Of a DNA stretch of 24,000 bases, positions 2 to 21,809 are shown piece by piece (positions within the stretch are counted from its first letter, which is position 1; the number at the start of each line of letters is the position of its first letter). This stretch comes from Pyrinomonadaceae bacterium. Lineage in GTDB: Bacteria; Acidobacteriota; Blastocatellia; Pyrinomonadales; Pyrinomonadaceae. The notes beneath the pieces were generated by a model. That model was given only the letters and a program-made list of their open reading frames with translations, searched no databases and was not told the origin of the DNA. The stretch lies in NCBI GenBank assembly GCA_035296445.1, contig DATHAZ010000149.1, positions 48,331-72,330 of the forward strand. The letters run 5' to 3'. The position numbers and the translations under genes were made by a program.

Positions 2-1123
2 GAGACCCCGGACAAAGACCCTAATACTGCCCTCTTTCGCATCGAAGTGATCAAGGTGCCGTTGGCTGCGCCGCAAAATGCTCAGGTAGTGTCAAGCCCC
101 CGCGTGTTCATGGACCCCAGAACGGGCGCTCTGAACGGCCTGAATAACGGCGGCACACACGGCAAGGACGGATTGGAAAAGCCGTCCCCCACCGACCAGT
201 GCCACGACATTACCGTGTACTCGGCCATCGGACTCGCGGCGGGCGCCTGCTCGGGAAATGGAATTCTGCTGGACATCAAAGACCCGGTCAATCCAAAGCG
301 CGTGGACGCCGTAAACGATCCGAACTATGCCTACTGGCACTCGGCCTCGTTTTCCAATGACGGAAAAAAAGTCGTATTTACAGACGAGTGGGGCGGTGGG
401 TTGGGCGCGCGCTGCCGCGCGAACGACCCGAATGTATGGGGAGCCAACGCAATTTTCCGCCTGACGGGTAACAAGCTGAACTTCGCGAGCTACTACAAGT
501 TGCCGGCCGCGCAGGGCGACAGTGAGAACTGTGTCGCGCACAACGGCTCGCTCCTTCCGGTTCCCGGCCGCGACATCAAGGTACAGGCATGGTATCAGGG
601 CGGCATCTCCCTCATGGACTTCACCGACCCTGCCCGTCCGGTTGAGATTGCCTATTTCGACCGGGGGCCGATTGATCCGAACATGCTCATACTCGGCGGC
701 GCATGGTCTGCCTACTGGTACAACGGCCACATCTACGCGTCGGAGATCGCGCGCGGCCTCGACATCTTAGAGTTGACTCCGACGCAGCACCTGACGCAGA
801 ACGAGATTGACGCCGCGAAGGCGGTTCGGGTGGCGGAATTGAATGTGCAGAACCAGGAGAAGATTGAGTGGCCGCGACGATTGGTCGTAGCGAAGGCATA
901 CGTGGATCAGCTTGAGCGTTCGCAGGCTCTGCCTACGGGACGAATCGCAGACCTGCGGGTGGCGATTAAAAGTGCAGAGTTTTCACGCCTGAGTCGAAGC
1001 GATCTTGGAAAACTCAAAAGCCTCGCGCCGTCGTTGGAGAAAAGCGCCGGCCTGACGAAGAGTGCGGCAGACTCAGCCCGACTACGAGCTTTGGCTGAAA
1101 TCCTGAGACAACCCGCACTTTGA
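2..1123 (+). CDS. LVIVD-repeat / beta-propeller-like protein, 5' end cut off by the window edge
   Basis: The frame is open with no stop from nt 2 up to the listed GTG at 47, so the gene most likely begins left of the window. It has blade-like strings (GILLDIKDPVNP, GGISLMDFTDPARPVEIAYFD, ARGLDILEL, AHNGSLLPVPG) reminiscent of LVIVD / choice-of-anchor-B type proteins. The C-terminal ~100 aa are helical and rich in Ala/Leu/Lys. Confidence 0.55.
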   Translation, partial: ETPDKDPNTALFRIEVIKVPLAAPQNAQVVSSPRVFMDPRTGALNGLNNGGTHGKDGLEKPSPTDQCHDITVYSAIGLAAGACSGNGILLDIKDPVNPKRVDAVNDPNYAYWHSASFSNDGKKVVFTDEWGGGLGARCRANDPNVWGANAIFRLTGNKLNFASYYKLPAAQGDSENCVAHNGSLLPVPGRDIKVQAWYQGGISLMDFTDPARPVEIAYFDRGPIDPNMLILGGAWSAYWYNGHIYASEIARGLDILELTPTQHLTQNEIDAAKAVRVAELNVQNQEKIEWPRRLVVAKAYVDQLERSQALPTGRIADLRVAIKSAEFSRLSRSDLGKLKSLAPSLEKSAGLTKSAADSARLRALAEILRQPAL

Positions 1124-1481: not shown

Positions 1482-2627
1482 GTGAAGACGACGGGTTCCT
1501 GCGCGCCTTCTTTGCCCAACTATAGCCGTAACTCTTCGAAGCAGAAGAATATTCGTACAACTGCTGTCCAGAGGTTAGAGGTGTCGTCCTCTCCAGTTAC
1601 CAAGAGTTCATCGTGGCTCCGTGGCCGTTGGCCTTTCGGGCGTTCCGTTCAGACGGGCGTCGCGGGCGGCGAAGGGGCGTCTTTCCCTGCGACGGATGAA
1701 GGTGGTCAACAGGGGTCAGAACTTAGCAAACAGCAGAAAGCCGAAAAGGTAAGCTGGAATCTCGAAGCCGGGGCGCAGATAGCCGAAGGTCGCTCGATTC
1801 TGAAAAGACTCTCGGGTGGGAATCGTTACGAAGTCTTCCTGACCTGGGACGACCGACTTTTCGCGATTACGGTCACAAAAATCCTGAGACCCGACCAGGC
1901 CGAAGACGCGCACGCGCTCAATGAGCTTCGGCGCGAAGTCGAAGTGCTGCGAGGGCTGGCCCACCCTTGTCTCGTGCGCTGTTTCGACGCCGTGCTCGAA
2001 GGCCCCTATCCGCACGTGATGCTTGAGCATCTGGAAGGCCCCACCCTGCGCCGCCTGATCAAGCAACAAACGACCATACCCTTAGATCAACTGCTGCCGC
2101 TTGCTCTCCACGTTGCGGCCGTCCTCCAATACATGGCAAACGAGGGGTTCGTTCACCTCGACGTTAAGCCCAGTAACATCGTGATGGGAGTTCCGCCCCG
2201 CCTCATTGACCTGAGCATCGCCCAGAGTTTCGAGAGCGCCGCCCAGCTACGCCATTCCATCGGCACCGACCCCTACATGCCGCCTGAGCAATGCGACCCG
2301 GCCGCACACCCCGGCGGCATCGGGCACGCCGCCGACGTGTGGGGACTTGGAGCCACGCTTTATCACGCGGTCACGGGCGAAACCCCCTTTCCACGCGGCG
2401 ACGCGAAGAGCAAAGACCGAACTCTACGTTTCCCTCAATTAGTCGAGGAGCCAAAACCGCTCCCGCGATACGTCCCCCCGGCTTTGCAGGAGTTGATTTC
2501 GAGCATGCTCGCGAAGAATTCGGCCGAGCGACCGGCAGCCTCCGACGTTGCCAGCGCGCTTGAGCCCTTGGTCGCGTTAATTTCGCCCAGGCTTAAAGCC
2601 TCGCGGCGCGGTATACACGTTCGTTGA
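1482..2627 (+). CDS. Ser/Thr protein kinase (Hanks-type, non-RD, variant motifs)
   Basis: Catalytic loop HLDVKPSN, activation segment DLS...GTDPYMPPE, ADVWGLGATLYHAVTGETPF, and probable VTK catalytic Lys. The N-terminal ~100 aa are low-complexity. The GTG start at 1482 is uncertain because no in-frame ATG occurs before the kinase domain. Confidence 0.8.
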   Translation: MKTTGSCAPSLPNYSRNSSKQKNIRTTAVQRLEVSSSPVTKSSSWLRGRWPFGRSVQTGVAGGEGASFPATDEGGQQGSELSKQQKAEKVSWNLEAGAQIAEGRSILKRLSGGNRYEVFLTWDDRLFAITVTKILRPDQAEDAHALNELRREVEVLRGLAHPCLVRCFDAVLEGPYPHVMLEHLEGPTLRRLIKQQTTIPLDQLLPLALHVAAVLQYMANEGFVHLDVKPSNIVMGVPPRLIDLSIAQSFESAAQLRHSIGTDPYMPPEQCDPAAHPGGIGHAADVWGLGATLYHAVTGETPFPRGDAKSKDRTLRFPQLVEEPKPLPRYVPPALQELISSMLAKNSAERPAASDVASALEPLVALISPRLKASRRGIHVR

Positions 2628-2703
2628 CAACCGGAAAGGTCACTTGCCAACAGCTTGACGGAGCACCGAACGCGAAACAGTAGTAAACCACAGGGGGAAT
2701 ATC

Positions 2704-4068
2704 ATGATGCTCAGTGTTAATAGATTACTCGGCCGCCGCTCTCCGGCGGACGCCGACGCGGAAAGTTTATTTGAGAACGCTGACGGCGCGAAAAAATCAC
2801 CGTCCTCGATCTACCTCCGACTCATCGAGGATGAATCGCCCGGCCGGGAGGTGGGTAAGCGCTCGTTCGGCGTCCGGCTCGGCGCTGTGTTCGCGACATT
2901 GATGGTGGGGTTGTCGGCCGGAGCGTCAAATGTATTTGCCGAAGATGATGACGACCTGGCTGCTTCTCCTTCAAAAGCCGGCTCTCACGACGACGATGAC
3001 GACGTAGACAACACGGCGACGGGAACCGGAACGGGCGTTAACACGGCGACGGCCACCGCCACTGATCCGGGCACGAATGACGCGACCGGAACGAACACCG
3101 GCACGGGAGTGGCGACGGCAACCGGCACGGGGACGCTCAACGGTCGCACCGCCACCGGGACGGCAACCGGCACGGGAGGGGTGACGGCGACCAACACGGC
3201 GACCGCCACTAATCTTAAAACCGGCGACCGCACCGCCACCCAGACGGGAACGGGAACGGGCGTCAACACGGCGACAGCCACCGCGACCGCTACGGCCGCC
3301 GGTAATGGCCGCAGGGGCAACAAGGGCAAGCAGGCCGGCAAGAACAAGGGTGGTGATGATAATGACGGCACCGCCACCGGGACGGCAACCGCCACCGGCG
3401 TCAACACCGCGACCAACACCGGCACGGCCACCGACCCCCGCACACAGGACGCGACGGCGACCCGCACCGGCACAGCCACGGGTAACAACACGCTGACAGC
3501 CACCGCGACCAGAACGGCTACGGGCACCAAACTCACAGCCACGGACGGCACGGCCACCAACACGGCGACGGCGACCGGCGTCAATACCGCCACGAACACC
3601 GCCACCGCCACAGACCCGTTGACGCAGGATCGCACCGCGACAGCGACGGCGACCGGAACCGGAGGGGCGACCGGCACGGCCACAAACACGGGCACCGTGA
3701 CCGGCACCCGGACGGCGACCGGCAGGACGCGAACTGCCACGGCGACGGGTACGGGCGGGGTCACGGCCACCAACACGGCGACGGCCACTAACCCTCGGAC
3801 TGTTGACGCTACGGCGACCAACACGGCCACCGCGACGGGCGCACAGACTGCGACTAACACCGCGACCGCGACCGGCACGGCAAACGGCGGAACTGCAACC
3901 GGCACTGCCACTGCGACCGGCGACACTACGGCCACGAACACGGCGACCGCCACCAACCCGGCAACGCTGGATACGACCGGAACGGGAACGGGCACCAAAG
4001 ACACAAAAACGGGAACACGCACCAAGGACACAAAGACGGGAACCGCGACCGGGACGACCGCCGCATAG
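2704..4068 (+). CDS. Secreted or membrane-anchored Thr/Ala/Gly-rich repeat protein (alternating T-X-T-X)
   Basis: AGGGGG RBS at 2692-2697, 6 nt before the ATG. N-terminal hydrophobic signal/anchor (LGAVFATLMVGLSAGASNVFA) followed by acidic runs (EDDDD, HDDDDDVD). About 360 aa of TATNTATAT[DN]PxTxDxTAT-type modules follow. A strong hairpin terminator lies downstream. Confidence 0.7.
   Translation: MMLSVNRLLGRRSPADADAESLFENADGAKKSPSSIYLRLIEDESPGREVGKRSFGVRLGAVFATLMVGLSAGASNVFAEDDDDLAASPSKAGSHDDDDDVDNTATGTGTGVNTATATATDPGTNDATGTNTGTGVATATGTGTLNGRTATGTATGTGGVTATNTATATNLKTGDRTATQTGTGTGVNTATATATATAAGNGRRGNKGKQAGKNKGGDDNDGTATGTATATGVNTATNTGTATDPRTQDATATRTGTATGNNTLTATATRTATGTKLTATDGTATNTATATGVNTATNTATATDPLTQDRTATATATGTGGATGTATNTGTVTGTRTATGRTRTATATGTGGVTATNTATATNPRTVDATATNTATATGAQTATNTATATGTANGGTATGTATATGDTTATNTATATNPATLDTTGTGTGTKDTKTGTRTKDTKTGTATGTTAA
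3004..4062 (+). repeat. Imperfect in-frame tandem codon repeats (ACS-GCS/GGS-ACS) inside the Thr-rich gene
   Basis: Recurring DNA strings such as accaacacggcgacggcc / accgccaccg / ggcgtcaacaccgcgacc. At protein level GVNTATxTxTATDPxTxD occurs about 4 times and GGVTATNTATATN about 2 times. Confidence 0.75.
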
Positions 4069-4146
4069 TTAGGCGAGCGGAGAGCGCGGCCTCGCGCCCA
4101 TCCCTGAAAGTCGTCTCGCCTGCCGGATAGGAGTACAAGTGGAAAA

Positions 4147-4190
4147 GAGGAGGGGCAAGGAATCAACCTTGCCCCTCCTCCTCGTTTGTG
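4147..4190 (+). terminator. Rho-independent terminator-like hairpin after the Thr-rich gene
   Basis: Perfect 14-bp inverted repeat gaggaggggcaagg (4147-4160) / ccttgcccctcctc (4167-4180) with a 6-nt loop, followed by the T-containing tail ctcgtttgtg. Confidence 0.6.
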
Positions 4191-4342
4191 CGCCGGCGCT
4201 AGTGATAGTGCTCCCTCAGTAAGTGTCCTTACTACCTGGACAGGGTCTATAACCTCGCTCCGTTTATCGTAGACGGCGAGCGCGGACGCCGCCGGACAAC
4301 ACGAGAACGGGATCACGCTCTCTCGTAACCCGCCGCCGGCTA

Positions 4343-4462: not shown

Positions 4463-5230
4463 ATGAGTCAACACACATCTCCGCGATGCCTGGTCCTGGG
4501 CGGCGCGGGTTACGTCGGGTCGGCGGTATGCAGGTTGTTATATGAGTGCGGAGCACGCCTCGCGTTTACTTATCACACGGGTGGCGAGACGGCGAGAGTT
4601 TTGGCCGAAGAGTTGAAGGGCAGCTTTCCGCTCCACGCCGATCTGGCGAGTTACGCGGAGACGAGGCGCGTGGTTCGTGAGGCCGGCGGGCTGCTGGGCG
4701 GTCTCGATGCGTTGATCCAGTGTGCGGGCACGGCGGGCGATCCCACTCTCTATACAACCCGCCACGCGGACGATCACGGTAAGTTCCTGGCTATCACGGA
4801 GGCCGAGTGGGACGCGATGTTCGATGTCACCGTTCGCAGCACCTTCGCGGCGTGTCAGGAGGCGACGCTCTTGATGAGTCGGAATCAGAAGAACGGCGGC
4901 AGTATCGTCATCGTCGGCTCGATTGACGGCATCAAGCCTTTGCCCGCGCCCGTTCACTACGCAGCCGGCAAAGGTGCGCTGCGCTCCCTCACGGAAGCCT
5001 TAGCCAAAGAGTTGGGGCGAGACAACATCCGCGTCAATCTGGTCGCCCCCGGAATCCTCGAAGGCGGCATCGCGCGCCACCTGGAAGCGCGGCTGTTGCA
5101 GGATTATTTAGAGCACTGCGCTTTAAAGCGAGCGGGGAAGAGCGACGAAGTGGCCGAAGTTATCGTCCGGCTCGCACTGGATAACACTTACGTGACGGGT
5201 CAATCAATCGTGCTCGACGGGGGTTTGTAG
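4463..5230 (+). CDS. Short-chain dehydrogenase/reductase (FabG-like), SDR no. 1
   Basis: Rossmann motif LVLGGAGYVGSAV, catalytic YAAGKGAL, NIRVNLVAPG, C-terminal GQSIVLDGGL. GAGG RBS 5 nt upstream of the ATG. Confidence 0.85.
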   Translation: MSQHTSPRCLVLGGAGYVGSAVCRLLYECGARLAFTYHTGGETARVLAEELKGSFPLHADLASYAETRRVVREAGGLLGGLDALIQCAGTAGDPTLYTTRHADDHGKFLAITEAEWDAMFDVTVRSTFAACQEATLLMSRNQKNGGSIVIVGSIDGIKPLPAPVHYAAGKGALRSLTEALAKELGRDNIRVNLVAPGILEGGIARHLEARLLQDYLEHCALKRAGKSDEVAEVIVRLALDNTYVTGQSIVLDGGL

Positions 5231-5314
5231 CGAGCGCGGCGACCCGCCCGCGAGCCACGCCGAGCCTGAGACGGCACGCGCTCCGGGGCGGCGGGTTCGG
5301 ATAATTGATCGCCG

Positions 5315-5343
5315 TTGACTTGCCCTGTGCCCTTCCTTATAGT
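5315..5343 (+). promoter_or_regulatory. Near-consensus sigma70-type promoter upstream of the radical-SAM operon
   Basis: TTGACT (5315-5320), exactly 17-nt spacer, TATAGT (5338-5343). It lies about 125 nt upstream of the ATG at 5467. Confidence 0.45.
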
Positions 5344-5466
5344 GTAGCCCGAATTGACGGCGCAGACTTCTCGGGGCGTAGTTCATTCAGCCCGTCTAAC
5401 AAGGGTTTAAGAACCGCCTGCCAGCCACCTCCAGACAAGTTCTTTCGCGCGCAGGAGAAACCCCGG

Positions 5467-6987
5467 ATGCCTACTAACCCCCGCGGAACCCGCCCTTATA
5501 CTTTTTACAAGATGACGCAGAGCACCTGCCCCGAATGCCTGAAAGTGGTGCAGGCGCAGGTCGTCTTCGAGGACAACAAAGTATTCTTCCTTAAGCACTG
5601 CCGCGAACATGGACACAGCAAAGCTCTGGTGAGCGAAGACGCGGAGTACTATCAGAACGCGTTCTCGTTCAGCCGGCCGGGCAGCGTCCCTTTGCAGTTC
5701 TCGACCGAGGTTAAAGAGGGGTGTCCGACCGATTGCGGTCTGTGCCCGTCTCATCAACAGCACACCTGTCTGCCGATCATCGAGGTCACGGACTACTGTA
5801 ATCTTGAGTGTCCGGTCTGCATCGTCAACAACCAGTATTCCAACCACATGTCGCTCGGCGATTTTCAAGAGATCATTGATCTGCTTGTGCGCCACGAGGG
5901 AGTGCTCGACACCGTCACACTGAGCGGCGGCGAGCCGACTTCGCACCCGCAGTTCTGGGAGTTGATTGACATCGCCACGCGCCCCGAGGTCGGGCGCGTC
6001 TCCGTCGTCACGAACGGCATACGCATCGCCCGCTCGAAAGAGTTCTGCGCGCGCCTCAAAGAAAAAAACGTCTACGTGATCCTCCAGTTTGACGGCTTCA
6101 CCGACGATGTGCAGAAAGCGATCCGCGGCGTTGACCTGATGGAGACGAAACACAGGGCGCTCGAACACCTCGGCGAATTCAACATCTCGACGCAGATCGC
6201 TTTCGTCCCGGCGCGCGGGGTGAACGAGCATCAGTTGGGAGACGCCGTGCGGCTGCTGCTCGAACGCGACCACATTCTGTCGCTCCTGATCCAGCCGTTC
6301 GCTGCCACGGGGCACGGCGGCGGCGTCTTTCCGCACGACCCTTTGGATCGCCTGACGACGCCGGGCGTCATCCGTGCCATTGACGAACAGACCGCCGGCC
6401 TCGTCGCGCGCGAAGACTTCATCCCGCTTCCCTGCTCGCACCCGCTCTGCGTTTCGCTGACCTACCTGCTCAAGCTCGACGACGGGAGCTATCTCCCTTT
6501 CCCGCGCTTCGTGGACATGCGCCGCCACCTCGACCTGTTCCAGCAGACGGCGACCCTCGAAGCGAACGAGCAGACGGAGGATGCGCTGCAAGGTGTGATC
6601 GGCGACTTGTGGAGCACCGCCGGTGAGATACCCGACAGCCAGAAGGTCATCAAAGCGCTCAGGCGCGCCCTGCTGGAGATGTTCCCCAACAAAAAAGTTG
6701 ACCGCCGTGAACTCATCCGCATCACGGAAAGGCAGGCCAAGACGATCTTCATCCACCACTACATGGACAGACACGACTTCGACATCGAGCGTCTGATGAA
6801 GTGCTGTCACCACTACCCGCAAGTTGACGGGCGGATCATGCCCGCGTGCGGATTCAACATGTTCCATCGCGGCGCGGCGAAAGGAGCCGGGACGCAGACT
6901 CCGCCGTGGGGGAAAGGGCCGTTCATCAAAGATGATTCGCCCGAACTCAAACTCTACGCAATCGGCCGCGAGCGCAACGTCACGTGA
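5467..6987 (+). CDS. Radical SAM enzyme, COG1964 / tetraether-lipid-synthase (Tes, GDGT-MAS)-like architecture, paralog 1
   Basis: AGGAG RBS at 5453-5457, 9 nt before the ATG; the listed start at 5305 is an upstream extension. N-terminal knuckle CPEC...x19...CREHG, second Cys motif GCPTDCGLCPSH, radical-SAM CNLECPVC (CX3CX2C), SAM-binding LSGGEPTSHP, C-terminal PCSHPLC and KCC...PAC motifs. Clear paralog of 11941-13431. Confidence 0.8.
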   Translation: MPTNPRGTRPYTFYKMTQSTCPECLKVVQAQVVFEDNKVFFLKHCREHGHSKALVSEDAEYYQNAFSFSRPGSVPLQFSTEVKEGCPTDCGLCPSHQQHTCLPIIEVTDYCNLECPVCIVNNQYSNHMSLGDFQEIIDLLVRHEGVLDTVTLSGGEPTSHPQFWELIDIATRPEVGRVSVVTNGIRIARSKEFCARLKEKNVYVILQFDGFTDDVQKAIRGVDLMETKHRALEHLGEFNISTQIAFVPARGVNEHQLGDAVRLLLERDHILSLLIQPFAATGHGGGVFPHDPLDRLTTPGVIRAIDEQTAGLVAREDFIPLPCSHPLCVSLTYLLKLDDGSYLPFPRFVDMRRHLDLFQQTATLEANEQTEDALQGVIGDLWSTAGEIPDSQKVIKALRRALLEMFPNKKVDRRELIRITERQAKTIFIHHYMDRHDFDIERLMKCCHHYPQVDGRIMPACGFNMFHRGAAKGAGTQTPPWGKGPFIKDDSPELKLYAIGRERNVT

Positions 6988-7041
6988 GCGTGCGCCCCGC
7001 AACACCGTCACCGTAGACGCTCTAAGACACCGTCACTCTGT

Positions 7042-8421
7042 ATGAGCAGCCAGCCCGCCACGCCGCATCTCTCGATCTCAAAATACGCGCGCCACGTCAA
7101 CCCCCAGTTCGTCAAACTGCTCGGCGTTTTCGGTTACGGGCGCGTGTTCGAGCGAGCGAGCGACGTGTGGGTGTGGGATCAACAGGGGCGTCTGTATCTG
7201 GACTTCCTCGCCGGTTTCGGGTCGGTCAACGTCGGCCATAATCACCCTCGTCTCGTGGCGCGCCTCCGAGATTTTCTCGCCGCCGAAAGAATGAACTTCT
7301 GCCACGTCGCGCCCTGCGCCGAGGCGGCGGAGTTGGCGGAGGCTTTAGCCGGGGCGGCGGGGACGCCTCTGCGGGTCTCTCTTTTTTCCAACAGCGGAGC
7401 GGAAGCCGTCGAAGCCGGGATGAAGCTGGCGCGAGCGGCGACCGGGCGCAAAGGATTCGTCTATTGCCAACACGGCTTCCACGGCACGACCCTCGGCACG
7501 CTCTCCGTCATGGGCGGCGAGCGTCTGCGCCAGCCCTTCGAGCCTTTGTTAAATGACTGCGACGCCATCCCGTTCGGAGATTTAGACGCGCTCAATCGTG
7601 CGCTGGCGCGCGGGCGTGTGGCGGGCTTCATCGTCGAACCCGTCCAGGGCGAAGGCGGTGTGGTCACGCCTCCGCAAGGTTACTTGAAGGAGGCGCAGGC
7701 ATTATGCCGCCGGCACGGGACGCTCCTCATCCTCGACGAAGTGCAGACGGGGCTGGGGAGAACCGGGACGATGTTCGCCTACGAGGCGGAAGGCTTCACC
7801 CCGGATGTGCTGGTCTTAGCGAAGTCGTTGAGCGGGGGCGTCGCGCCCATCGGCGCGACGCTGATTTCCGAGGATACGTTCGACCGCGCTTACGGCTCAC
7901 TCGCGCGGTTTGATCTGCACGGTTCGACGTTCGGCGGCAATGCGTTCTCGTGCGTCGCCGCGCTGGAGACCCTGCGGATCATCGCCGACGAGAATTTAGT
8001 CGCGGCTGCTGCTGCGCGCGGCGCACAGTTGTTGGCGGGTCTGCGCGAAAAACTTGCAGGCCACCCGCTCGTGCGCGACATACGCGGGCGCGGTTTGTTA
8101 GTGGGCATCGAACTCGGCCCGACCGACTCGGGCTGGATCAACAAAGTCGCGCCGTCGCTGGTGAATCTCGTGTCGAAGAATGTGTTCGGGCAATGGGCGG
8201 CGCTCAAGTTGCTGGAGCGCGGGTTGATCTGCCAACCGGCCTCGCAGGCTTGGAACATCCTGCGGCTGGAGCCGCCATTGACGGTGCGGGAGGCGGAGGT
8301 GGACGCGGCCGTCGAGATGGTGGCCGGCGCTCTGGGGGAGTATCGAGGCATGTCGCCGCTGTTAAAGGATGTCGCCGAGCGTCTGGGCGGACAGTGGCGG
8401 AAAGGTTGGGCGTTTGAATGA
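7042..8421 (+). CDS. Class-III (PLP-dependent) aminotransferase
   Basis: FLAGFGSVNVGHNHP, SNSGAEAVEAGMKLAR, LILDEVQTGLGRTGTMFAYE, and PLP-lysine context VLAKSLSGG. These are typical of the acetylornithine/GABA/ornithine-oxoacid aminotransferase family. Confidence 0.85.
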   Translation: MSSQPATPHLSISKYARHVNPQFVKLLGVFGYGRVFERASDVWVWDQQGRLYLDFLAGFGSVNVGHNHPRLVARLRDFLAAERMNFCHVAPCAEAAELAEALAGAAGTPLRVSLFSNSGAEAVEAGMKLARAATGRKGFVYCQHGFHGTTLGTLSVMGGERLRQPFEPLLNDCDAIPFGDLDALNRALARGRVAGFIVEPVQGEGGVVTPPQGYLKEAQALCRRHGTLLILDEVQTGLGRTGTMFAYEAEGFTPDVLVLAKSLSGGVAPIGATLISEDTFDRAYGSLARFDLHGSTFGGNAFSCVAALETLRIIADENLVAAAAARGAQLLAGLREKLAGHPLVRDIRGRGLLVGIELGPTDSGWINKVAPSLVNLVSKNVFGQWAALKLLERGLICQPASQAWNILRLEPPLTVREAEVDAAVEMVAGALGEYRGMSPLLKDVAERLGGQWRKGWAFE

Positions 8422-9452
8422 ATCTCTCGGAGTTGAGGCGCGACCTCCGGTTCACCACCAATCTGTTGCTGCGTCGCCCGTTCGACGTGCTGGTGCAGGT
8501 CACGAACCGCTGCAACATGAAGTGCAGCTTTTGTGACTTCTGGCCGCACGGCGCGACGGCGCGCGAGGAGTTGCAGGTTGCCGAATACCGGCGCGTGGCC
8601 TCGGAACTGGCGTCGCTCGGCTGCTTCATCGTATCCGTGGAAGGCGGCGAGCCGTTCGTGCGTCCAGACCTCGTGGAGATCGTCGGGGCATTCGCCGAGC
8701 GTGGACACCTGCCGGTCGTTTATACCAACGGCTGGTACGCGGACGCCGACAAGGCGCGCGCTCTGTTCGCCGCCGGACTGACGCAGGTCGGCATCTCCAT
8801 AGACTACCCGGAGGCGCGGCGTCACGACGCCAAACGCGGACTGGACGGAGCGTTCGCGCGCGCATGGGAGGCCGTCGAGGCTTTCCGCGAGGCCGCGCCA
8901 CACGGCGGAAGACAAGTACACGTGATGACCGTTCTGATGAAAGATAACCAGCGCGACATCGAAGAGTTGTTGCGTTTGAGCGCGCGCCGCCGCGTCGGGC
9001 ACTACGTCACCCTGCTCTCGACGGCCGGCTTCCGGCGTGGCCGCAGTAGTAGTAGCGCCGACCGTGCGCCGGAGGGGGCATTCGCAGACGAGTTGCTCGC
9101 GCTGCGACGCCGCTACAAACATTTTCGCGCGCCGAGCGATTACCTGCGGCTGGCCGCCTCCTACGCCGACGGCGGCGCGATGCCGACCTGTCGCGCCGGA
9201 GTACAGACCTTCAACATAGATCATCTGGGCAACGTCTCGGCCTGCATCGAGCGCATAGACAAGCCCGTGGGAAACGTCCGCGAAGAACATCTCGTCAGCC
9301 TGCACGCGAAGCTGCAAGGCGATGAAGAGCGTGCGGAAGTCGGAAGCTGCCAGAAGTGCTGTACGATCTGCCGGGGGATGGGGCAGACGTTCGGCGCGGG
9401 CGGGTCTCTGCGCGGCTGGTGGGAGTTGGCGACGCGTATGAGGTCACATTGA
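8418..9452 (+). CDS. Radical SAM enzyme with C-terminal SPASM/twitch-like Cys cluster
   Basis: VTNRCNMKCSFCDFW (CX3CX2C), VEGGEPF glycine motif. The C-terminus has CRAGVQTFNIDHLGNVSAC (GX4C) and CQKCCTICRG. The start overlaps the aminotransferase stop (ATGA at 8418-8421). Confidence 0.8.
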   Translation: MNLSELRRDLRFTTNLLLRRPFDVLVQVTNRCNMKCSFCDFWPHGATAREELQVAEYRRVASELASLGCFIVSVEGGEPFVRPDLVEIVGAFAERGHLPVVYTNGWYADADKARALFAAGLTQVGISIDYPEARRHDAKRGLDGAFARAWEAVEAFREAAPHGGRQVHVMTVLMKDNQRDIEELLRLSARRRVGHYVTLLSTAGFRRGRSSSSADRAPEGAFADELLALRRRYKHFRAPSDYLRLAASYADGGAMPTCRAGVQTFNIDHLGNVSACIERIDKPVGNVREEHLVSLHAKLQGDEERAEVGSCQKCCTICRGMGQTFGAGGSLRGWWELATRMRSH

Positions 9453-9463
9453 GCGGGGAGACG

Positions 9464-10216
9464 ATGTTGCTGCTGCGGCCACTGTTAAAAGACAAACGCG
9501 TGCTCGTGACGGGCGGGTCGCGCGGTCTGGGACGCGCCTTCTGTGAACGCTTCGCCGCGGAGGGCGCGCACGTCGCCTTCAACTACACGAGCGACGAGAG
9601 CGGCGCGCGCGAAACCCTCGGCCGCGTCGAGACGAGCGGGCAGAGGGCGCTCGCCTTCAGGGCGTCGGTGCTCGACTACGCCGCCCTCGAACAGATGGTC
9701 AGAGAGATCGAGAGCGCATGGGGCGGCATAGACGTTCTGGTTAACAACGCCGGAATAAGTCAGCCACTGCCGTTGGCGTTGATGGAGGAGGAGGACTGGG
9801 ACGCGGTGATGGACACGAACGCGAAGGGGCAGTTTCTCGCTGCGCGCGCGGTGTTGCGGGGCATGATTCGGCGTAAGGGCGGATGTATGCTCAATATCGG
9901 CTCACTGGCCGGGGTGCGCCTGATCGAAGCGCCGATTCATTACTGCGCCAGTAAGGCCGCGGTCAAGGGCTTCACGGAGGCGCTGTCTAAGGAGGTGGCG
10001 CGCTATAATATTCGCGTCAACTGTCTCGCGCCGGGGTTGCTCGATGACGGCGTCTCACAGAATCTACCCGAGTACCGGGTGGAGGAGTTTCTCAAACACG
10101 TCTCGCTGCACCGCAAAGGCACTCTGGAGGAGGTCGCGAGGTTCGCCGCCTTCCTCATCTCCGACAGGAACAGCTACATGAACGGCGCGACGGTCGTGAT
10201 AGATGGCGGCCTGTGA
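9464..10216 (+). CDS. Short-chain dehydrogenase/reductase (FabG-like), SDR no. 2
   Basis: GGGGAG RBS at 9455-9460 followed by the ATG at 9464. VLVTGGSRGLGRAF, NNAG, YCASKAAVKG, NIRVNCLAPG. The listed start at 9356 would overlap the previous gene by ~100 nt and adds non-SDR sequence. Confidence 0.85.
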   Translation: MLLLRPLLKDKRVLVTGGSRGLGRAFCERFAAEGAHVAFNYTSDESGARETLGRVETSGQRALAFRASVLDYAALEQMVREIESAWGGIDVLVNNAGISQPLPLALMEEEDWDAVMDTNAKGQFLAARAVLRGMIRRKGGCMLNIGSLAGVRLIEAPIHYCASKAAVKGFTEALSKEVARYNIRVNCLAPGLLDDGVSQNLPEYRVEEFLKHVSLHRKGTLEEVARFAAFLISDRNSYMNGATVVIDGGL

Positions 10217-10251
10217 GAAGCGTCCGTAATTGTGAAGGGGCTGTGAGGTAA

Positions 10252-11385
10252 ATGGTCGCAACCGCGTACCAGTCAAATCTCTTCGGGTGGATCGTCAGCC
10301 GACGTTATGACACGGCGTTCATCTTCGGCGGGGCGGCGGCGAGTTTGTGCGCGCCGTTGCTGGTCTGGTGGTACCCCGCCCTTTTATCTCCGCTGTTCTG
10401 GCTCTGGCTGTTCCTCTTCGACGGCACCCACAGTTGGGCTACTTACAGCCGCACCTACGCCGACCCGCAGTTCCGCAGAGAGAACCGTCGGCTCTTGTTC
10501 GGCAGTCTTGTCTTGTTCATCCCGGCGGCGGCGGCCATCTATTTATGGCAGGCCAGCGGCTCGCTCGCGCCCGTTTATCTGTTTCTGTTCATCGCGCAGT
10601 GGTGGAGTTATCACCACATCGTCAGGCAGCACTACGGGTTCGCTTCGATCTACGACCGCAAGGCGCGCGCCGACAGTACTTCTCACCAAGTCACCAAGTG
10701 GACTCTCTATCTTGGATTGTGGCTTCCTTACCTTTATTTCCTCCTGACGCACCCGCTGAATCGCCGGATCATGAGCGGCTCGCTCGACGGCGCGGCAGAC
10801 CTCCCGCCGGTCAATTACGGGTGGGTTGACACGCTGCTCGGATACGGCGCGCCAGCCCTCTCCGTCGCCCTCCTGCTCGGCCTCGTCGCGTACCACGTCC
10901 GGCGGTGGGGCGGTCTTCGGCAGAGATTTGAACTCAGCCCGGCGCTCGTCTTCACAGCGGCGTGCGTGCTGTTGTATTCCGTGATCTTTTACGTCATCGC
11001 GCCGCTTGAGCCGCTGCTGCCCGGCGCGCGCACGCCCGTGCAGAGCTTCATGCTCATGCAGGTCATGATCACGCTGTTTCACAACATCCAGTATCACGCC
11101 GTCGTGTGGCATTACAACCGTAACCGTCCGAGCCGCGCGCGTCTCAACCGTAACTTCTTCATCTACGCTCTGGCCGCAATGATCTTCTCTATCGGCTACG
11201 TCGCCGCCGCATGGTACACTACCGAATATCCGTCATGGCAGGGAACGATCCCGGAAAACATACTCGTCCCGGCGGCGTTCTGCGCGTGGTGGGGGTTGTC
11301 GCTGCACCATTACTACCTCGATCAGAAGATATGGCGCGTCAGCAAAACGCAGGAACTGCAACGCCATTTCGGCGTCACGGCCTGA
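10252..11385 (+). CDS. Polytopic integral membrane protein with four His clusters (family not recognised; possible membrane metallo-enzyme)
   Basis: About 8-9 hydrophobic segments. His clusters FDGTHSW, WWSYHHIVRQHYGF, LFHNIQYHAVVWHYN and LSLHHYYLDQKIWR lie at predicted helix ends. Confidence 0.6.
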   Translation: MVATAYQSNLFGWIVSRRYDTAFIFGGAAASLCAPLLVWWYPALLSPLFWLWLFLFDGTHSWATYSRTYADPQFRRENRRLLFGSLVLFIPAAAAIYLWQASGSLAPVYLFLFIAQWWSYHHIVRQHYGFASIYDRKARADSTSHQVTKWTLYLGLWLPYLYFLLTHPLNRRIMSGSLDGAADLPPVNYGWVDTLLGYGAPALSVALLLGLVAYHVRRWGGLRQRFELSPALVFTAACVLLYSVIFYVIAPLEPLLPGARTPVQSFMLMQVMITLFHNIQYHAVVWHYNRNRPSRARLNRNFFIYALAAMIFSIGYVAAAWYTTEYPSWQGTIPENILVPAAFCAWWGLSLHHYYLDQKIWRVSKTQELQRHFGVTA

Positions 11386-11975
11386 CGCCGTCCCTGCGCG
11401 CTCTGGGCGTGGTGCCCCTGGCTTTCTTCGTTCTTCATGCCCGTTACCACATCGGGCAGGGCACGGGCGGACATCTCCTGTGGGTGTGTACGGTCTCGAA
11501 CCTGCTGCTGGCGGCCGGCCTTTTTCTGGACTTGCCGATGTTGATCCGCGTCGCCGTCATGTGGCTCGTCACGGGACTGCCCCTCTGGGCGTGGGACATG
11601 TTTGAGCAGGGTATCGCGCCGGTCTCAAGTTTCCTCACACACTTCGGCGGTCTGGCGGTCGGGCTTATCGGTCTTTCCAGAGTGCGTGCCGCGCGCGGCC
11701 TCTGGGTCTGTGCTTTCATCTGGTATCTCACCTTGCAGCTCGCGGCGCGCCTGCTCACGCGCCCGGAGTTGAACGTCAACCTCGCACACGACATGCACGG
11801 CGGTTGGCGCGATTTATTCAACTCCTACTGGAGGTTCTCGGTCTTCATGAGTCTGGTAGTAGCCGTAGCCCTCTGGCTGACCGGGCTGGTAACGCTGAAA
11901 CTCTTTCCCCCGTCGGTGAATCATCCGAAGCGAGGTGCTTATGACGGCGACGACATCAGCCCGCAAACTGCATGA
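11331..11975 (+). CDS. Small polytopic membrane protein (unknown function)
   Basis: Five to six hydrophobic helices (VVPLAFFVLHA, LLWVCTVSNLLLAAGLFL, VAVMWLVTGLPLWAW, FGGLAVGLIGL, LWVCAFIWYLTLQLAA, FSVFMSLVVAVALWLTGLV). The start is uncertain: ATG 11331 overlaps the upstream gene by 55 nt, and GTG 11409/11412 are alternatives. The 3' end overlaps the next gene by ~35 nt. Confidence 0.5.
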   Translation: MARQQNAGTATPFRRHGLTPSLRALGVVPLAFFVLHARYHIGQGTGGHLLWVCTVSNLLLAAGLFLDLPMLIRVAVMWLVTGLPLWAWDMFEQGIAPVSSFLTHFGGLAVGLIGLSRVRAARGLWVCAFIWYLTLQLAARLLTRPELNVNLAHDMHGGWRDLFNSYWRFSVFMSLVVAVALWLTGLVTLKLFPPSVNHPKRGAYDGDDISPQTA

Positions 11976-13431
11976 CACGACGAGCCTCTGCGCCACCTGC
12001 AAGCGCGGCATCGAGGCGTCGTTGTGGGAGCGGGACGGCCGGATTTCCATGCGCAAGGCATGCCCCGAACACGGCGCGAGCGAGGTCTTGATCTCTTCGG
12101 ACGCCGCCTGGTATCACGAAACGCTGAACTATGCGGCGCGGACGATCCAGCCCCCGTTCGTCAAGAATGCGGTGGACAGGGGCTGTCCCTTCGACTGCGG
12201 CGCATGCGAGGCACACGAGCAGAAGTCATACCTCCCGGTCATCCCCATCACGAGCGCGTGCAACCTTGATTGTCCGGTCTGCTATACGATCAACAAGAAT
12301 GAGGATGCGTTCCACATCTCGCTCGAAGAGTTCGCGGCTATCCTCGATGTCGTGCGCCGCAACGATCCGGGGCTGAAGATAATCAACCTGACGGGCGGCG
12401 AGCCGACACTTCACCCCCAATTGACGAAGATCGTAGAGATGTGTCACGCAGCCGGAATCCACCGCGTCACCATCAGCACGCACGGATTGACCTTCATCAA
12501 CAACGAAGCGTTGCTCGACGAACTGGCCGTCCTCGGCGCGCGCATCGTCCTCTCTTTCAACTCTTTCGACGAGGCGGTCAACTATCGCATGGTCGGCGCG
12601 AGGGCGGCGAAGGGTAAGTTGAAAGTCCTCGAAAAGCTGGCGCGGCACAACGTAGACACGACGCTCATCCCGGTGCTGGCCGTCGGCTACAACGACCGGG
12701 AGATCGGCGATCTCGTGAACCTCGCGCTCTCTCAAGACTTCATCCGCAGTCTGGAAATTCACACGATGACCTTCACGGGTCAGAGCGGCACAGACTTCGA
12801 CCCCGCAGCGCGCCTGACCACGCCCGACGTGCTGCGCCGGATCGAAGAGCAGACCGGCGGCCGCATCCGCATGGGCGACTTCGTGCCCTCGCCGTGCGCC
12901 CACCCGCTCTGTTATCAAACCTGCTACCTGCTCCAGACGCCTGCGAGCGGCTTCATCCCCTTCACACGGTTCATGTCTAAGGAGACGATCCGCCAACTGC
13001 TGACGGACAACCTTTACATGGAGCCCGGCCCGCTCATGGAGTCCGCATTGCAGGACGTAGCCATGCAGTTGTGGGCGTCGGAGTTGGACGACGAGACGGG
13101 GGAAGCCGTCCTGACGACGCTCAAGAACTTAATCAAGCGCCTCTTCCCGGCCGTGCCTCTGCCTTACCACGAGCGGCAGATAATCGCCGAGCGCGCCGCC
13201 AAGACGATCTACATACACTCGCACATGGATGAGGAGAATTTCGACACCGACCGCATCCGTCAATGCTGCGTGGGCGTGCCCTCGGCCGACGGCGGCAACG
13301 TGCCGACGTGCGCCTACAACATCCTATACCGCGAGCGCGACTCGCGATTTTCGGCCAGAGACAGCGCGCCGCTCTCCACCTACGCCGGCGGGCGCAAAGA
13401 GCTGGTGCAGATCAGGCGTCCGGGCAGGTGA
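11941..13431 (+). CDS. Radical SAM enzyme, COG1964 / Tes(GDGT-MAS)-like architecture, paralog 2
   Basis: CATC...x19...CPEHG knuckle, GCPFDCGACEAH, CNLDCPVC, LTGGEPTLHP, PCAHPLC, AKTIYIHSHMDEENFD, QCC...PTC. It is collinear with 5467-6987 in every motif. The start is ATG 11941 or GTG 11935. Confidence 0.8.
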   Translation: MTATTSARKLHDTTSLCATCKRGIEASLWERDGRISMRKACPEHGASEVLISSDAAWYHETLNYAARTIQPPFVKNAVDRGCPFDCGACEAHEQKSYLPVIPITSACNLDCPVCYTINKNEDAFHISLEEFAAILDVVRRNDPGLKIINLTGGEPTLHPQLTKIVEMCHAAGIHRVTISTHGLTFINNEALLDELAVLGARIVLSFNSFDEAVNYRMVGARAAKGKLKVLEKLARHNVDTTLIPVLAVGYNDREIGDLVNLALSQDFIRSLEIHTMTFTGQSGTDFDPAARLTTPDVLRRIEEQTGGRIRMGDFVPSPCAHPLCYQTCYLLQTPASGFIPFTRFMSKETIRQLLTDNLYMEPGPLMESALQDVAMQLWASELDDETGEAVLTTLKNLIKRLFPAVPLPYHERQIIAERAAKTIYIHSHMDEENFDTDRIRQCCVGVPSADGGNVPTCAYNILYRERDSRFSARDSAPLSTYAGGRKELVQIRRPGR

Positions 13432-13433
13432 CG

Positions 13434-13910
13434 ATGCGATTCTTTCTGGTTGACCGCGTGGATGAATTGAAGCCGGGGGAGATGATCCGCGGCGTCAAGA
13501 ACGTGACGCTCAGCGAAGACTTTTTGCAGGATCACTTCCCTTCCCATCCCCTCTTTCCCGGCACATTAATGATCGAGGCGTTGGCGCAGTTGGGCGGATG
13601 CCTCGTCGAGGCCACCTTCAATACCAGCGACGACAACGTCAGGCGCGCGGTGCTCGCGCAGGTTGACCGCGCCAGATTTCACGAGGCCGTGAGGCCGGGC
13701 GATCAACTGAAGATAGTGTGCCGCCTTGTCTCGATGCTCGAAGGCGCGGCGCAGGTTAAGGGCGAAGCCAGCGTGGGCGAACGCGAGGTCGCCCGCGCGA
13801 CGCTGCTCTTCGCGCTGCGCGCCGTGGGGTCGGAACGGATACACCGGCAGCGGAGGGAAATTTACGAGATATGGACGCGCCACTTGAATCTGGACTTCAC
13901 GCTCCGCTAG
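13434..13910 (+). CDS. FabZ/FabA-like 3-hydroxyacyl-ACP dehydratase (hot-dog fold)
   Basis: MRFFLVDRV..., then the signature HFPSHPLFPGTLMIEALAQLGG. The ATG lies 2 nt after the stop of the upstream radical-SAM gene. Confidence 0.8.
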   Translation: MRFFLVDRVDELKPGEMIRGVKNVTLSEDFLQDHFPSHPLFPGTLMIEALAQLGGCLVEATFNTSDDNVRRAVLAQVDRARFHEAVRPGDQLKIVCRLVSMLEGAAQVKGEASVGEREVARATLLFALRAVGSERIHRQRREIYEIWTRHLNLDFTLR

Positions 13911-14812
13911 TTGTCACCGGAGTCGGCTCTCTCGTGCTCGCGCCCGCGCGGGCGGGCGAAGAAGACCCGTCCGTTGACGCCGCGCGCGAAGTCGCGCCGT
14001 GGCTCAAGTCGAAGAAGATGCGCAAGTTCATGGGCAAACAGGATCAACTCGCGGTGGCCGCCGCCGGCCGCGCCGCGAAAGACGCCGCCCTCGACGAGCG
14101 AACCTTGCGTGAACGCACCGGGCTTTACCTGTGCGTCGGTCATATCCCCTTCGAGCGCGCACAGATTGAAGCGATAGCCCGCGGCTCGATTCAAGCGGAC
14201 GAGTTTTGCATGGAGCGGTTTTCCACCACGGCCTTCGAGCGCGTCAACCCTCTGCTCACGTTTCGCTGTCTGCCGAACATGCCCGCCTTCCACGTCTCGC
14301 TCAACCTCGGGATGCGCGGGCCATACTTCGTCACCTACCCTTGCGCGGGACAGTTCTACCTCGCGCTTGAGTGCGCGACGGCCGCACTGGAAAGCGGCGA
14401 GGTTGATGTCGCGCTCGTGGGAGCGGTCGCCGACCAGAACAATTTTCTCGTCGCATACCATTTCCGCCGAACGTCGGATTCGCGAAAACTGACCGCTTGG
14501 GAAGGCATAGACGCGGGCGCGTTCCTGTGTCTGGAGACACGGGACGGGGCGAGGCGACGCAATGCAGAGGTCAAGGCCGAACTGCTCTCGTCGGAGGTTA
14601 GCTACGCCGCGCCGGACTCGTGGGGCGAGTCGCGGCCATTCGCGGAGTCGGTCACTTTCGCGGGCGTGAAAACGGTGGCCGCGAAGCCTACGGCGGCCTC
14701 GCTTCCCGTGAGCCTGAGCCATGCCGCAGGCGGCGCGGGCAAGGGCGAGTTCGTCCATCAACTGTCCACGGCGGGCGGCGTCGAGGCGACGAGCCGTTGG
14801 AGGGTCGTGTGA
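13871..14812 (+). CDS. Truncated beta-ketoacyl synthase-like protein (chain-length-factor-like KS partner)
   Basis: KS N-terminal-like LVVTGVGS, RKFMGKQDQLAV (compare RKMDxF in FabF), LPNMPAFHVSLNLGMRGPYF, and the YPCAGQ segment at the active-site position. It is only 313 aa and lacks a recognisable HGTGT/HGTST His motif. It overlaps the FabZ-like gene by 40 nt and ends in a GTGA overlap with the KS. Confidence 0.65.
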   Translation: MDAPLESGLHAPLVVTGVGSLVLAPARAGEEDPSVDAAREVAPWLKSKKMRKFMGKQDQLAVAAAGRAAKDAALDERTLRERTGLYLCVGHIPFERAQIEAIARGSIQADEFCMERFSTTAFERVNPLLTFRCLPNMPAFHVSLNLGMRGPYFVTYPCAGQFYLALECATAALESGEVDVALVGAVADQNNFLVAYHFRRTSDSRKLTAWEGIDAGAFLCLETRDGARRRNAEVKAELLSSEVSYAAPDSWGESRPFAESVTFAGVKTVAAKPTAASLPVSLSHAAGGAGKGEFVHQLSTAGGVEATSRWRVV

Positions 14813-16793: not shown

Positions 16794-16836
16794 CTGTGGG
16801 AGTTCAGAGACGACGGGTAGAAAGAGACCACAGGCA

Positions 16837-17256
16837 ATGATTGAAAGAGATGAAATCTTCCGCGTCGTGCGCGGCTGCGTCGGCAAAAGCCTTGAGATTG
16901 ACGAAGAGGATGTGAAACTCGATTCACGCCTGATCAGCGAACTGGGGGCGGACTCCCTCGACTTTCTCGACATCGTCTTCAGGCTCGAAGAGAGTTTTGG
17001 GCTTAAGCTGCGCAACGCCGAACTGGATGTGCTGACCCGTGCGGAATTCACCGGCGCAACGAACGAGGACGGTTACATCCCGGCCGAAACCGTGGCGCAA
17101 TTTCGTCAATGGCTGCCCGCGCTCAGACTCGCGGAGCGCGACGACCGCATCAGCCCGCGTGACATCTACTCTTACATCACGACGGAGACGCTGGTGATCC
17201 TGATTGAACGGAAACTCGCCGAATCGGGCGGCGTTCAGAGTTCAACCGACCAGTAA
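16837..17256 (+). CDS. Acyl carrier protein with ~60-aa C-terminal extension
   Basis: Phosphopantetheine attachment motif LGADSLDFLDIVFRLEE. The protein is 139 aa from ATG 16837, whereas canonical ACPs are about 80 aa. Confidence 0.8.
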   Translation: MIERDEIFRVVRGCVGKSLEIDEEDVKLDSRLISELGADSLDFLDIVFRLEESFGLKLRNAELDVLTRAEFTGATNEDGYIPAETVAQFRQWLPALRLAERDDRISPRDIYSYITTETLVILIERKLAESGGVQSSTDQ

Positions 17257-20785: not shown

Positions 20786-20887
20786 CAAATGTGACATTCT
20801 GTATTGAAGGAATCGCTGAACCGCTTTACAGTGTGCCACCATCCGCCTCAATTTGTAACGCTCAACGCCATAAGGAGGAAAGTTCAA

Positions 20888-21735: not shown

Positions 21736-21809
21736 ATTAGGTTCGGAAGGAGTCTGAATATAAATCACTGTGCAGCACGGTAGATTTAATAGACTTCAGG
21801 AATCAGAAG

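Follow-up and report, generated by a model that had tools for sequence, protein, structure and literature searches.

A conserved gene pair, formed by a soluble Hanks-type Ser/Thr kinase and an exported protein built almost entirely of alternating threonines, has been found in the stretch of DNA analysed here, a window of 24,000 nucleotides (nt) from a Pyrinomonadaceae bacterium (Acidobacteriota; GenBank assembly GCA_035296445.1, contig DATHAZ010000149.1, positions 48,331 to 72,330 of the forward strand). The second gene of the pair, in the following called the array gene, is real and under purifying selection as strong as that on the kinase domain, and its pairing with the kinase is the best-supported feature of the locus. 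With Thr at every second position (TxT), its product is one form of a larger and so far undescribed family, whose members are exported, acidic, and rich in Thr and Gly and whose genes lie 3' of one soluble kinase clade. As a tentative explanation, to which we give somewhat less than an even chance, the kinase would act on the precursor of this protein at the membrane, where docking on a short cytosolic module and phosphorylation would control how an envelope beta-array protein is exported, processed or modified. The unit comprises the following elements:

1581 to 2627, forward strand: soluble Hanks-type Ser/Thr kinase, 348 residues as called (open frame up to 1482), Pfam Pkinase match at E=8e-37.
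2628 to 2703, forward strand: intergenic spacer of 76 nt, as given by the sequence and a terminator scan.
2704 to 4068, forward strand: Thr-array protein gene, 454 residues plus stop with an ATG start, as given by the list of open reading frames (ORFs) and by orthologues that align from the first residues.
4147 to 4190, forward strand: terminator-like hairpin (4147 to 4180) with a T-rich tail, its 14-bp stem containing 10 GC pairs.

The pairing has been examined at loci that were retrieved by the kinase alone, comprising 30 GTDB species genomes and 80 metagenome loci (of at least 541 relatives), and a locus has been regarded as informative when its kinase is at least 53% identical to that of the window and at least 450 nt of downstream DNA are present. 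A same-strand partner gene has been found downstream of the kinase in ~51 of 53 informative loci, a count that adds to an automated screen the loci L008, L019, and L011, where the screen had missed a partner gene that is present. A preliminary description of the window had called a link to the kinase speculative, and it has instead emerged as the strongest signal. The partner products share a signal or anchor, a poly-Asp patch, which follows the hydrophobic segment in nearly all of them, and a low-complexity region rich in Thr, Gly, Asp, Ser, and Asn. When the kinase identity falls below ~50% (Aeromicrobium and others), the partner is mostly absent. Partners of the TxT form stand beside the kinase in Pyrinomonadaceae, Vicinamibacterales (L117), Nitrospirota (L116), a metagenome-assembled genome (MAG) labelled 'Deltaproteobacteria' (L017), and the unassigned contigs L118 and L119, while L011 from Actinomycetes contains a Thr/Gly-rich form. 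The partner repeats of Thermoleophilia/Solirubrobacterales differ from these (e.g., GNTDxGGQDTGxSTxGETDxxDxTGxTE and DDTSxNGxSTRGTTNDNDTxT), and the TxT array is therefore one lineage-specific form of a broader kinase-linked family.

Around the two genes, the remaining neighbours vary between lineages. The spacer of 76 nt, already reported in the preliminary description and now fixed by the end of the kinase frame at 2627, contains no terminator according to the scan, and the hairpin at 4147 probably marks the end of a two-gene unit. Accordingly, the conserved unit is the gene pair itself, and the kinase and partner genes are probably co-transcribed. In three loci of the Thermoleophilia type (L018 at 6933-8114, L036, and L039), a gene for a protein resembling extracytoplasmic function (ECF) sigma factors is inserted between kinase and partner gene, and its product is fused to a transmembrane (TM) segment and a Ser/Gly-rich C-terminal region, which hints at a link to sigma-factor signalling.

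The array gene has been recovered from three independent assemblies, being 100% identical in Logan SRR5855416, different by 2 nt in ENA ERZ27286130, and partial in JGI 3300018946, where the contig begins inside the gene. Its tandem repeats are degenerate at the DNA level, where Tandem Repeats Finder (TRF) has reported short and weak arrays only, and a collapse during assembly is therefore unlikely. The concern that the repeat might be an assembly artefact is thus ruled out by the agreement of the three assemblies. Six other species-level Pyrinomonadaceae/Acidobacteria genomes carry the array gene directly 3' of the kinase gene, and the orthologous array proteins are 74-94% identical, which tracks the kinase identity of 77-97%. 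Across the seven orthologues the arrays are colinear with zero indels inside them, and conservation reaches 97.6% at the Thr positions, 84% at the x positions, 73.5% in the connectors, and 73.7% in the N-terminal 100 residues. The ratio of nonsynonymous to synonymous substitution rates (dN/dS) is 0.085-0.137 for the arrays and 0.07-0.14 for the kinase, and rises to 0.24-0.38 in the N-terminus of the array protein itself, with dS values of up to ~1. The absence of indels from the arrays and a dN/dS of ~0.1 argue for a position-specific functional polypeptide and against a drifting low-complexity spacer, and the view of the array as a regular element, taken earlier from the letters of a single genome, is borne out by these comparisons.

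The codon usage of the array gene is like that of the adjacent genes, and the opposite strand is open over much of its length:

2985 to 4316, reverse strand: antisense open frame of 443 residues, Val/Ala/Pro-rich, with no Pfam match.

Long antisense frames of variable extent accompany every orthologue and exist because T is nearly absent at codon position 1, which explains why the frame had rightly been taken for a composition artefact. As a true gene it has been rejected, since its extent varies among the orthologues and only the sense frame carries a conserved N-terminus outside the repeats.

A Shine-Dalgarno-like AGGGGGA at 2692-2698 is located 5 nt 5' of the ATG of the array gene, and the encoded protein can be divided into the following parts, all on the forward strand:

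2812 to 2877, forward strand: predicted cytosolic juxtamembrane module, residues 37-58, with Y37-L-R-L, an acidic IEDES, S54, K52/R53, and R58.
2878 to 2940, forward strand: hydrophobic signal or anchor segment, residues 59-79 (LGAVFATLMVGLSAGASNVFA), with a V-F-A / E-D site like that of signal peptidase I.
2941 to 3012, forward strand: acidic head, residues 80-103, with 11 Asp or Glu per 24 residues and both poly-Asp patches.
3013 to 3297, forward strand: N-terminal Thr array, residues 104-198, with 8 alternating T-x segments (AlphaFold strands E103-197).
3298 to 3369, forward strand: basic Gly/Lys/Arg linker, residues 199-222 (AGNGRRGNKGKQAGKNKGGDDNDG), conserved in the orthologues.
3370 to 3975, forward strand: C-terminal Thr array, residues 223-424, with ~14-16 ten-residue segments and connectors that alternate between 2-3 and 5-8 residues.
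3976 to 4068, forward strand: Lys/Thr-rich tail, residues 425-454, the sole part with indels among orthologues, including a tandem duplication.

Between residues 101 and 454 the composition is dominated by Thr (38.6%), Ala (19%), Gly (16%), and Asn (7.6%), and the occurrence of Thr at every second position, which the preliminary description had stressed, far exceeds what this composition yields by chance, as 102 T-x-T pairs are present against 52.1±4.5 in 2000 shuffled sequences (maximum 70), and adjacent TT pairs are reduced to 3 against 52.5±4.3. The alternation is organized in 25 runs, most of them exactly 10 residues long with the pattern T-A-T-[N/G]-T-A-T-A-T-[G/D/N], and the connectors between the runs alternate between 2 residues (VN, GV, GA, AQ, DT) and 6 residues. 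In the C-terminal array the strand starts are consequently spaced by 12,16,12,20,12,16,12,19,12,16,12,15,12,16 residues. The motif [DN]PxTxD occurs five times (residues 121, 244, 304, 363, and 418) and is complemented by NLKTGD (170) and a KLTATD-type sequence (276), so that the about seven recurrences of a turn-motif module described earlier have been recovered, with the correction that their period is approximate, ~27-32 residues per strand pair, with weak autocorrelation beyond the Thr pattern. A strict periodicity of 28 residues has been dropped for this weak autocorrelation, and strand pairs spaced by 12 plus 15-20 residues describe the array better. Pro is confined in the arrays to the [DN]P turns, and Asn is favoured at one x position (x2).

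The arrays contain 15 hydrophobic residues among 297 and no aromatic ones, and the only Tyr of the whole protein is found in the cytosolic tail, leaving the mature part free of Tyr. Likewise, no globular domains flank the arrays. An outer-membrane beta-barrel has been rejected, as the arrays lack any hydrophobic or aromatic alternation and the C-terminus reads TGTTAA. The two poly-Asp patches noticed before are located at residues 81-84 and 96-100, and the linker noticed to split the array is the basic element of residues 199-222, to which a basic break with KKKK in the L017 partner may be compared. The only recent duplication at the DNA level within the array gene, a 27-nt unit present 2.3 times at 3981-4043 with 88% identity (TRF), codes for the TKDTKTGTR tail.

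In comparison with the repeats, which differ from lineage to lineage, the part that the partner family has in common is, as judged from the sequences, the cytosolic module of ~20 residues. Within it, S34, Y37, L38, L40, and R58 are invariant in our alignment A1. From 46 distinct partners the consensus [YF]-x-x-L, 2-5 acidic residues, [ST]-x-x-[RK]-[RK] has been derived, in which the aromatic residue and the last basic residue are 17-22 residues apart (median 20) and the hydrophobic segment begins at +20 (median), and 44 of the 46 modules carry a Ser or Thr at most 6 residues upstream of the last basic residue. A hidden Markov model (HMM) of the motif has matched partner genes only, against 6437 background ORFs, and has revealed overlooked partners, including the genes behind the ECF sigma-TM insertion in L018 and L036. 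An origin of the module as a remnant of an ECF sigma N-terminus ('SLLRLQSDE' in the sigma-TM proteins of L018, L036, and L039) has been dropped, because the motif HMM gives no match there.

Residues 59-79 are preceded by K52, R53, and R58 and followed by EDDDD, charges that predict by the positive-inside rule an N-in, C-out topology and thus an exported product, in which a cytosolic tail of 58 residues would be followed by an extracytoplasmic part of ~375 residues. A twin-arginine translocation (Tat) signal has been rejected, as there is no more than one Arg, and between the motif and the hydrophobic segment lies an acidic stretch of ~15 residues. Lipobox-like Cys residues follow the hydrophobic segment in the partner of L116 (4046-4936, a Nitrospirota MAG), in P0021, and in P0037 (VAFGC, VALGC, and ALVGC, respectively), which are probably lipoprotein versions in which the module would leave with the signal peptide, and AxA-like sites occupy this position in other members. 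It follows that the module probably belongs to an extended signal peptide that can be cleaved off. With 454 residues, this charge pattern, and the cleavage sites of its relatives, the protein agrees with the earlier assignment as a secreted protein of ~450 residues.

The kinase of the window is 97% identical to that of a Pyrinomonadaceae (Acidobacteriota) soil MAG and belongs to a clade of at least 4394 sequence clusters (E<=1e-60), which come mostly from soil. It contains the beta3 Lys, the catalytic loop HLDVKPSN, a DFG-like DLS, and GTDxYMPPEQCDP, and the catalytic Lys, HLDVKPxN, DLS, and GTDxYMPPEQCDP are invariant in the family alignment; judged by these motifs, the enzyme is probably active. 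The closest solved structures are the kinase domains of PknB and PknA (E ~3e-24). No TM or other hydrophobic segment is present, the C-terminal tail is basic and conserved (EPLVAxxSPRLKASRRGIHVR), and no fusion of kinase and partner has been detected among the best 120 of the at least 4394 clusters, which are stand-alone kinases of 250-475 residues.

For the array protein, AlphaFold2 has been run without an alignment on the whole chain and on residues 219-424. The model of the whole protein (mean predicted local distance difference test, pLDDT, 49; predicted template modelling score, pTM, 0.45) places 24 strands, each 8-10 residues long, on the T-x segments, and that of the sub-array (pLDDT 57, pTM 0.55) shows 14 strands, so that an all-beta, solenoid-like fold is predicted at low confidence. 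Foldseek has returned no match in the PDB at E<=0.001, the best values being 0.54 for the whole model and 0.7 for the sub-array, and the top neighbours, all non-significant, are throughout beta-solenoid or beta-helix proteins (CsgA, FapC, SufD, pectate lyases, tapirins, TPS domains, RTX, and a DUF3494 ice-binding protein). The x positions also contain Arg, Lys, and Asp, with Arg being frequent in L118 and L119, and the x side is therefore probably solvent-facing, which would leave the Thr side as either a functional face or a buried zipper. As hydrophobic residues are so rare in the arrays, any fold must rely on silk-like packing of small residues. The beta-solenoid with a flat, exposed Thr face that had been envisaged at the outset thus stands in part: the strands on the T-x segments and the solenoid-type neighbours favour a solenoid, which the low pLDDT values and the lack of a significant fold match keep at low confidence, and the charged x residues speak against an exposed Thr side.

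Based on these features, one may propose that the precursor is a client of the kinase on the cytosolic side of the membrane. The kinase would dock on the cytosolic module, perhaps via its basic C-terminal tail, and before the chain is translocated it would phosphorylate the Ser or Thr next to the membrane and possibly also the Thr-rich part. Phosphorylation would then control export, processing or modification of the array protein, which once exported may adopt a silk-like beta structure, be it a flat solenoid or a stack of hairpins, in which Thr would face one side and Ala, Gly, and Asn the other, and may serve as a structural or binding element of the envelope or surface. Several observations weigh against this proposal. 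The juxtamembrane Ser/Thr is missing in 2 of the 46 modules, and actinobacterial forms often carry Ala in place of Ser/Thr just upstream of the motif. More distant kinases (43-51% identity; L085, L098, L100, and L111) precede D/G/T-repeat proteins that have a short, ordinary signal peptide and no module, and the module is therefore not universal. We know of no bacterial precedent for the Sec export of a pre-phosphorylated chain. Regarding the exported part, the models are alignment-free, of low confidence, and with non-significant fold matches; an autonomous fold is uncertain with so few hydrophobic residues, and the chain could be disordered until assembly or modification. Moreover, the array protein may be periplasmic in a diderm. 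There is a modest chance that the locus stands for a new type of system in which a kinase controls export or modification. We consider it very unlikely that the system extends to the full picture of a new secretion-control or modification system, in which a cytosolic Hanks kinase reads a docking and phospho-acceptor module within the extended signal peptide of its neighbour and gates export or pre-phosphorylates the cargo, which in several Gram-negative phyla would be a two-sheet Thr-ladder beta-solenoid that organizes water or ice or binds minerals.

The gene order may also be read as a receptor kinase split into two polypeptides, in which an anchored array protein would tether and regulate the soluble kinase by its tail and sense by its ectodomain. 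The kinase domain is homologous to those of PknB and PknA yet comes without their usual TM segment and ectodomain, and the succession of kinase, juxtamembrane part, single TM segment, and ectodomain is the one that a split in the juxtamembrane linker is expected to leave; the conserved module with its Ser/Thr fits the same picture, and the ECF sigma-TM insertions in L018, L036, and L039 suggest signalling. However, the lipobox- and AxA-like sites behind the hydrophobic segment of many members weaken this interpretation, because cleavage would part the tail from the ectodomain. The hydrophobic segment may accordingly be a cleaved signal peptide, unlike in PknB and PknA, and, again unlike in these receptors, the parts are encoded by two genes at every locus examined, with a low-complexity ectodomain devoid of PASTA or other sensor domains. 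As no fused kinase-TM-array protein occurs among the best 120 kinase relatives and sensing would be an odd task for low-complexity ectodomains that differ so much in sequence, we regard a split receptor as unlikely. A different role for the kinase would be the phosphorylation of many Thr residues ahead of export, which together with the poly-Asp head would yield a secreted polyphosphoprotein, an anionic matrix that binds cations or minerals. Phosphorylation of secreted proteins is known from Fam20C. Every type of partner has much Thr or Ser beside Asp, Gly or Asn as well as a poly-Asp patch, and an N-terminal module, if cleavable, could recruit the kinase to the precursor. In Bacillus subtilis, moreover, the kinase gene cotH is likewise clustered with genes of low-complexity structural proteins rich in hydroxy amino acids, the Ser-rich repeat proteins CotB and CotG, which CotH polyphosphorylates and by which it patterns a surface layer (PMC7821199). 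CotH is an atypical kinase in contrast to the canonical Hanks type found here, its substrates have Ser/Lys/Arg-rich instead of Thr/Ala/Gly repeats, and they are phosphorylated in the compartment where they remain, whereas the array protein still has to cross a membrane. The strict 10-residue segments with their position-specific x residues (Asn at x2) also fit a fold better than a carpet of phospho-acceptors, and a polyphosphoprotein appears distinctly unlikely.

Two further readings concern the array itself and leave the kinase aside. The principle of ice-binding faces had been put forward in the preliminary description, and a flat beta-solenoid with exposed Thr ladders that order water would indeed suit the TxTxTxTxT segments with Ala at most x positions and two strands per ~28-residue unit, the all-beta, solenoid-like model, and the high conservation of the Thr positions. 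The nearest parallels are the antifreeze protein (AFP) of the inchworm Campaea perlata, modelled with TxTxTxTxTxT in coils of ~24 residues around a flat Ala/Ser core, and RiAFP from Rhagium inquisitor (PDB 4DT5) with TxTxTxT (PMC13080227), which share with the array long TxTxTx strands, Ala/Ser at x, and two strands per coil of ~24-28 residues. The silk-like packing on which a fold of the array would depend has been proposed for the inchworm protein and is seen in RiAFP (PMC13080227). No sequence or fold relationship to these insect proteins is detectable, though, and they have 8-13 strands as compared to the ~24 of the array protein, in which both strands of a unit carry the Thr pattern and which comes from bacteria, carries an extended signal or anchor together with a poly-Asp head and a basic hinge, and is obligately paired with a kinase. 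Bacterial ice-nucleation proteins of the InaZ family are likewise envelope proteins with long tandem TxT arrays of beta-solenoid type (PMC9418140, PMC13080227), but their repeats have 16 residues with a higher order of 48, a TxT face, an SxT face, and Tyr ladders, in place of the 10-residue segments spaced by 12 and 15-20 and the Tyr-free mature part found here, and they occur in different taxa and find no counterpart in the Pfam search of the array protein. The array protein matches no PDB sequence at E<=1, no Pfam or NCBIfam family, and no fold significantly, and the charged x residues suggest an exposed x side and, possibly, a buried Thr side. Since the acidic D/G/T/S/N repeats of the partners in Actinomycetota are unable to form Thr ladders, ice binding is not the function at the level of the family. 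The source records (soil MAG catalogues, Danish habitats, a soybean field, and a lake) state no link to cold, a periplasmic location is possible, and this reading offers no account of the kinase; ice binding or nucleation is thus highly improbable in our estimate.

A disordered, O-glycosylated mucin-like spacer, or a hydrophilic filler of the envelope with a merely co-regulated kinase, had likewise been considered before. Alternating T-x stretches are common elsewhere as linkers between domains (P0002-P0008, P0020-P0043), the arrays are almost devoid of hydrophobic residues, the AlphaFold confidence is low, and the repeat sequence varies widely between lineages. On the other side, the length of the arrays is invariant up to a dS of ~1 under strong purifying selection, with the N-terminus evolving faster, the segments count exactly 10 residues with Asn preferred at one x position, Pro is restricted to the [DN]P turns, no globular domains flank the arrays, and the conserved unit contains no glycosyltransferase gene. 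For the absence of flanking domains, the position of Pro, and the invariant length, the class of Thr/Pro-rich inter-domain linkers has been rejected, and a mucin-like fibre or filler is disfavoured to the point of being very improbable.

Serine-rich repeat proteins (SRRPs) of Gram-positive bacteria consist of hydroxy-amino-acid dipeptide repeats and have an unusually long signal peptide with a conserved motif. The array protein resembles them in its alternating dipeptides and its long, motif-bearing signal peptide, and SRRP binding regions are among the non-significant fold neighbours. Unlike in SRRPs, no accessory Sec or glycosyltransferase genes are nearby, the neighbours being the kinase, a short-chain dehydrogenase/reductase (SDR), radical S-adenosylmethionine (SAM) enzymes, and an aminotransferase; the repeats are based on Thr and constant in number, and the motif is [YF]xxL-acidic and not of the KxYKxGKxW type. 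With the amyloids CsgA and FapC the array protein shares strand-turn-strand repeats, and CsgA (8c50) has been the top neighbour of the whole model (E 0.54) and FapC (9u4u) the fourth of the sub-array (1.5), both non-significant. The Curlin repeat is not matched, however, the window contains no csgB/E/F/G-like or fap-like genes, and the Thr/Ala composition differs from the Gln/Asn/Ser/Gly of the curli and Fap fibres.

Outside the gene pair, the window shows several further features. From 4463 to 17256 on the forward strand, behind the hairpin, a separate unit contains genes for two SDRs, two radical SAM proteins, a class-III aminotransferase, a radical SAM/SPASM protein, two proteins that match no family, FabA, a pair of a ketosynthase (KS) and a KS/chain-length-factor-like protein, a ketoreductase, and an acyl carrier protein. 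Both radical SAM proteins resemble the tetraether lipid synthase Tes (NF045702) with 269 and 255 bits, which is below the cutoff of 450 bits, and the gene content suggests a cluster that makes an unusual lipid or polyketide. A link of the array gene to this cluster has been rejected, because the hairpin lies between them and the loci of other phyla lack the cluster. At the other end, 47-1123 (forward strand) codes for the C-terminal part of a 672-residue protein that continues upstream in L002:4643-6661 and has a weak match to 'choice-of-anchor B' (TIGR04312, 45 bits, cutoff 100) and none in Pfam. The GC content drops to 0.46-0.50 at 20000-22500, compared with ~0.60-0.65 elsewhere in the window, and this region may have been horizontally acquired; the ORFs at 20804-21535, 22101-22469, and 22640-23890 have no Pfam match. 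A tRNA and Rfam scan has given no match anywhere in the window. In an ENA contig (P0001, 641 residues), the ORF of an IS21-family transposase (PF00665) runs into a T-A/T-G stretch of 190 residues with IPAT/NPGT breaks, which is probably read-through into a repeat region with unrelated T-x alternation.

The coverage of the family by databases is poor. A homology search with the whole array protein has returned only T-x-rich linkers of unrelated multidomain proteins, and a search with the N-terminus alone has returned no matches. In a metagenome scan that started from the alignment of the arrays, 600 stretches matched and none was retained by tblastn, for which the filtering of low-complexity sequence is the probable cause. 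An exhaustive HMMER search of 1.84 billion representatives has yielded 29 weak matches, ~6 of which are truncated relatives recognised by the N-terminal module. The exact array protein is not contained in a collection of 15 billion proteins, though it has been called on a Logan contig, and at two of four further loci the TxT ORFs had not been called in the source annotation (L117:4110-4800, ~230 residues, and L118:4129-5214, 361 residues), both located directly after the kinase. These uncalled genes and the missing array protein suggest that protein databases under-represent the family, and a literature search has found no description of a bacterial TxTxT array or of this kinase pairing, nor any pertinent paper for the sample accessions.

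The array gene illustrates that functional, position-specific proteins hide among sequences that are usually discarded as low complexity. If its fold is confirmed, the protein would be a bacterial Thr/Ala silk-like beta-array and as such of interest for designing proteins that bind ice, order water or bind surfaces. The pairing of an abundant clade of soluble kinases with exported Thr-rich proteins, finally, raises the question of which role a cytosolic kinase plays for a protein that leaves the cytosol.

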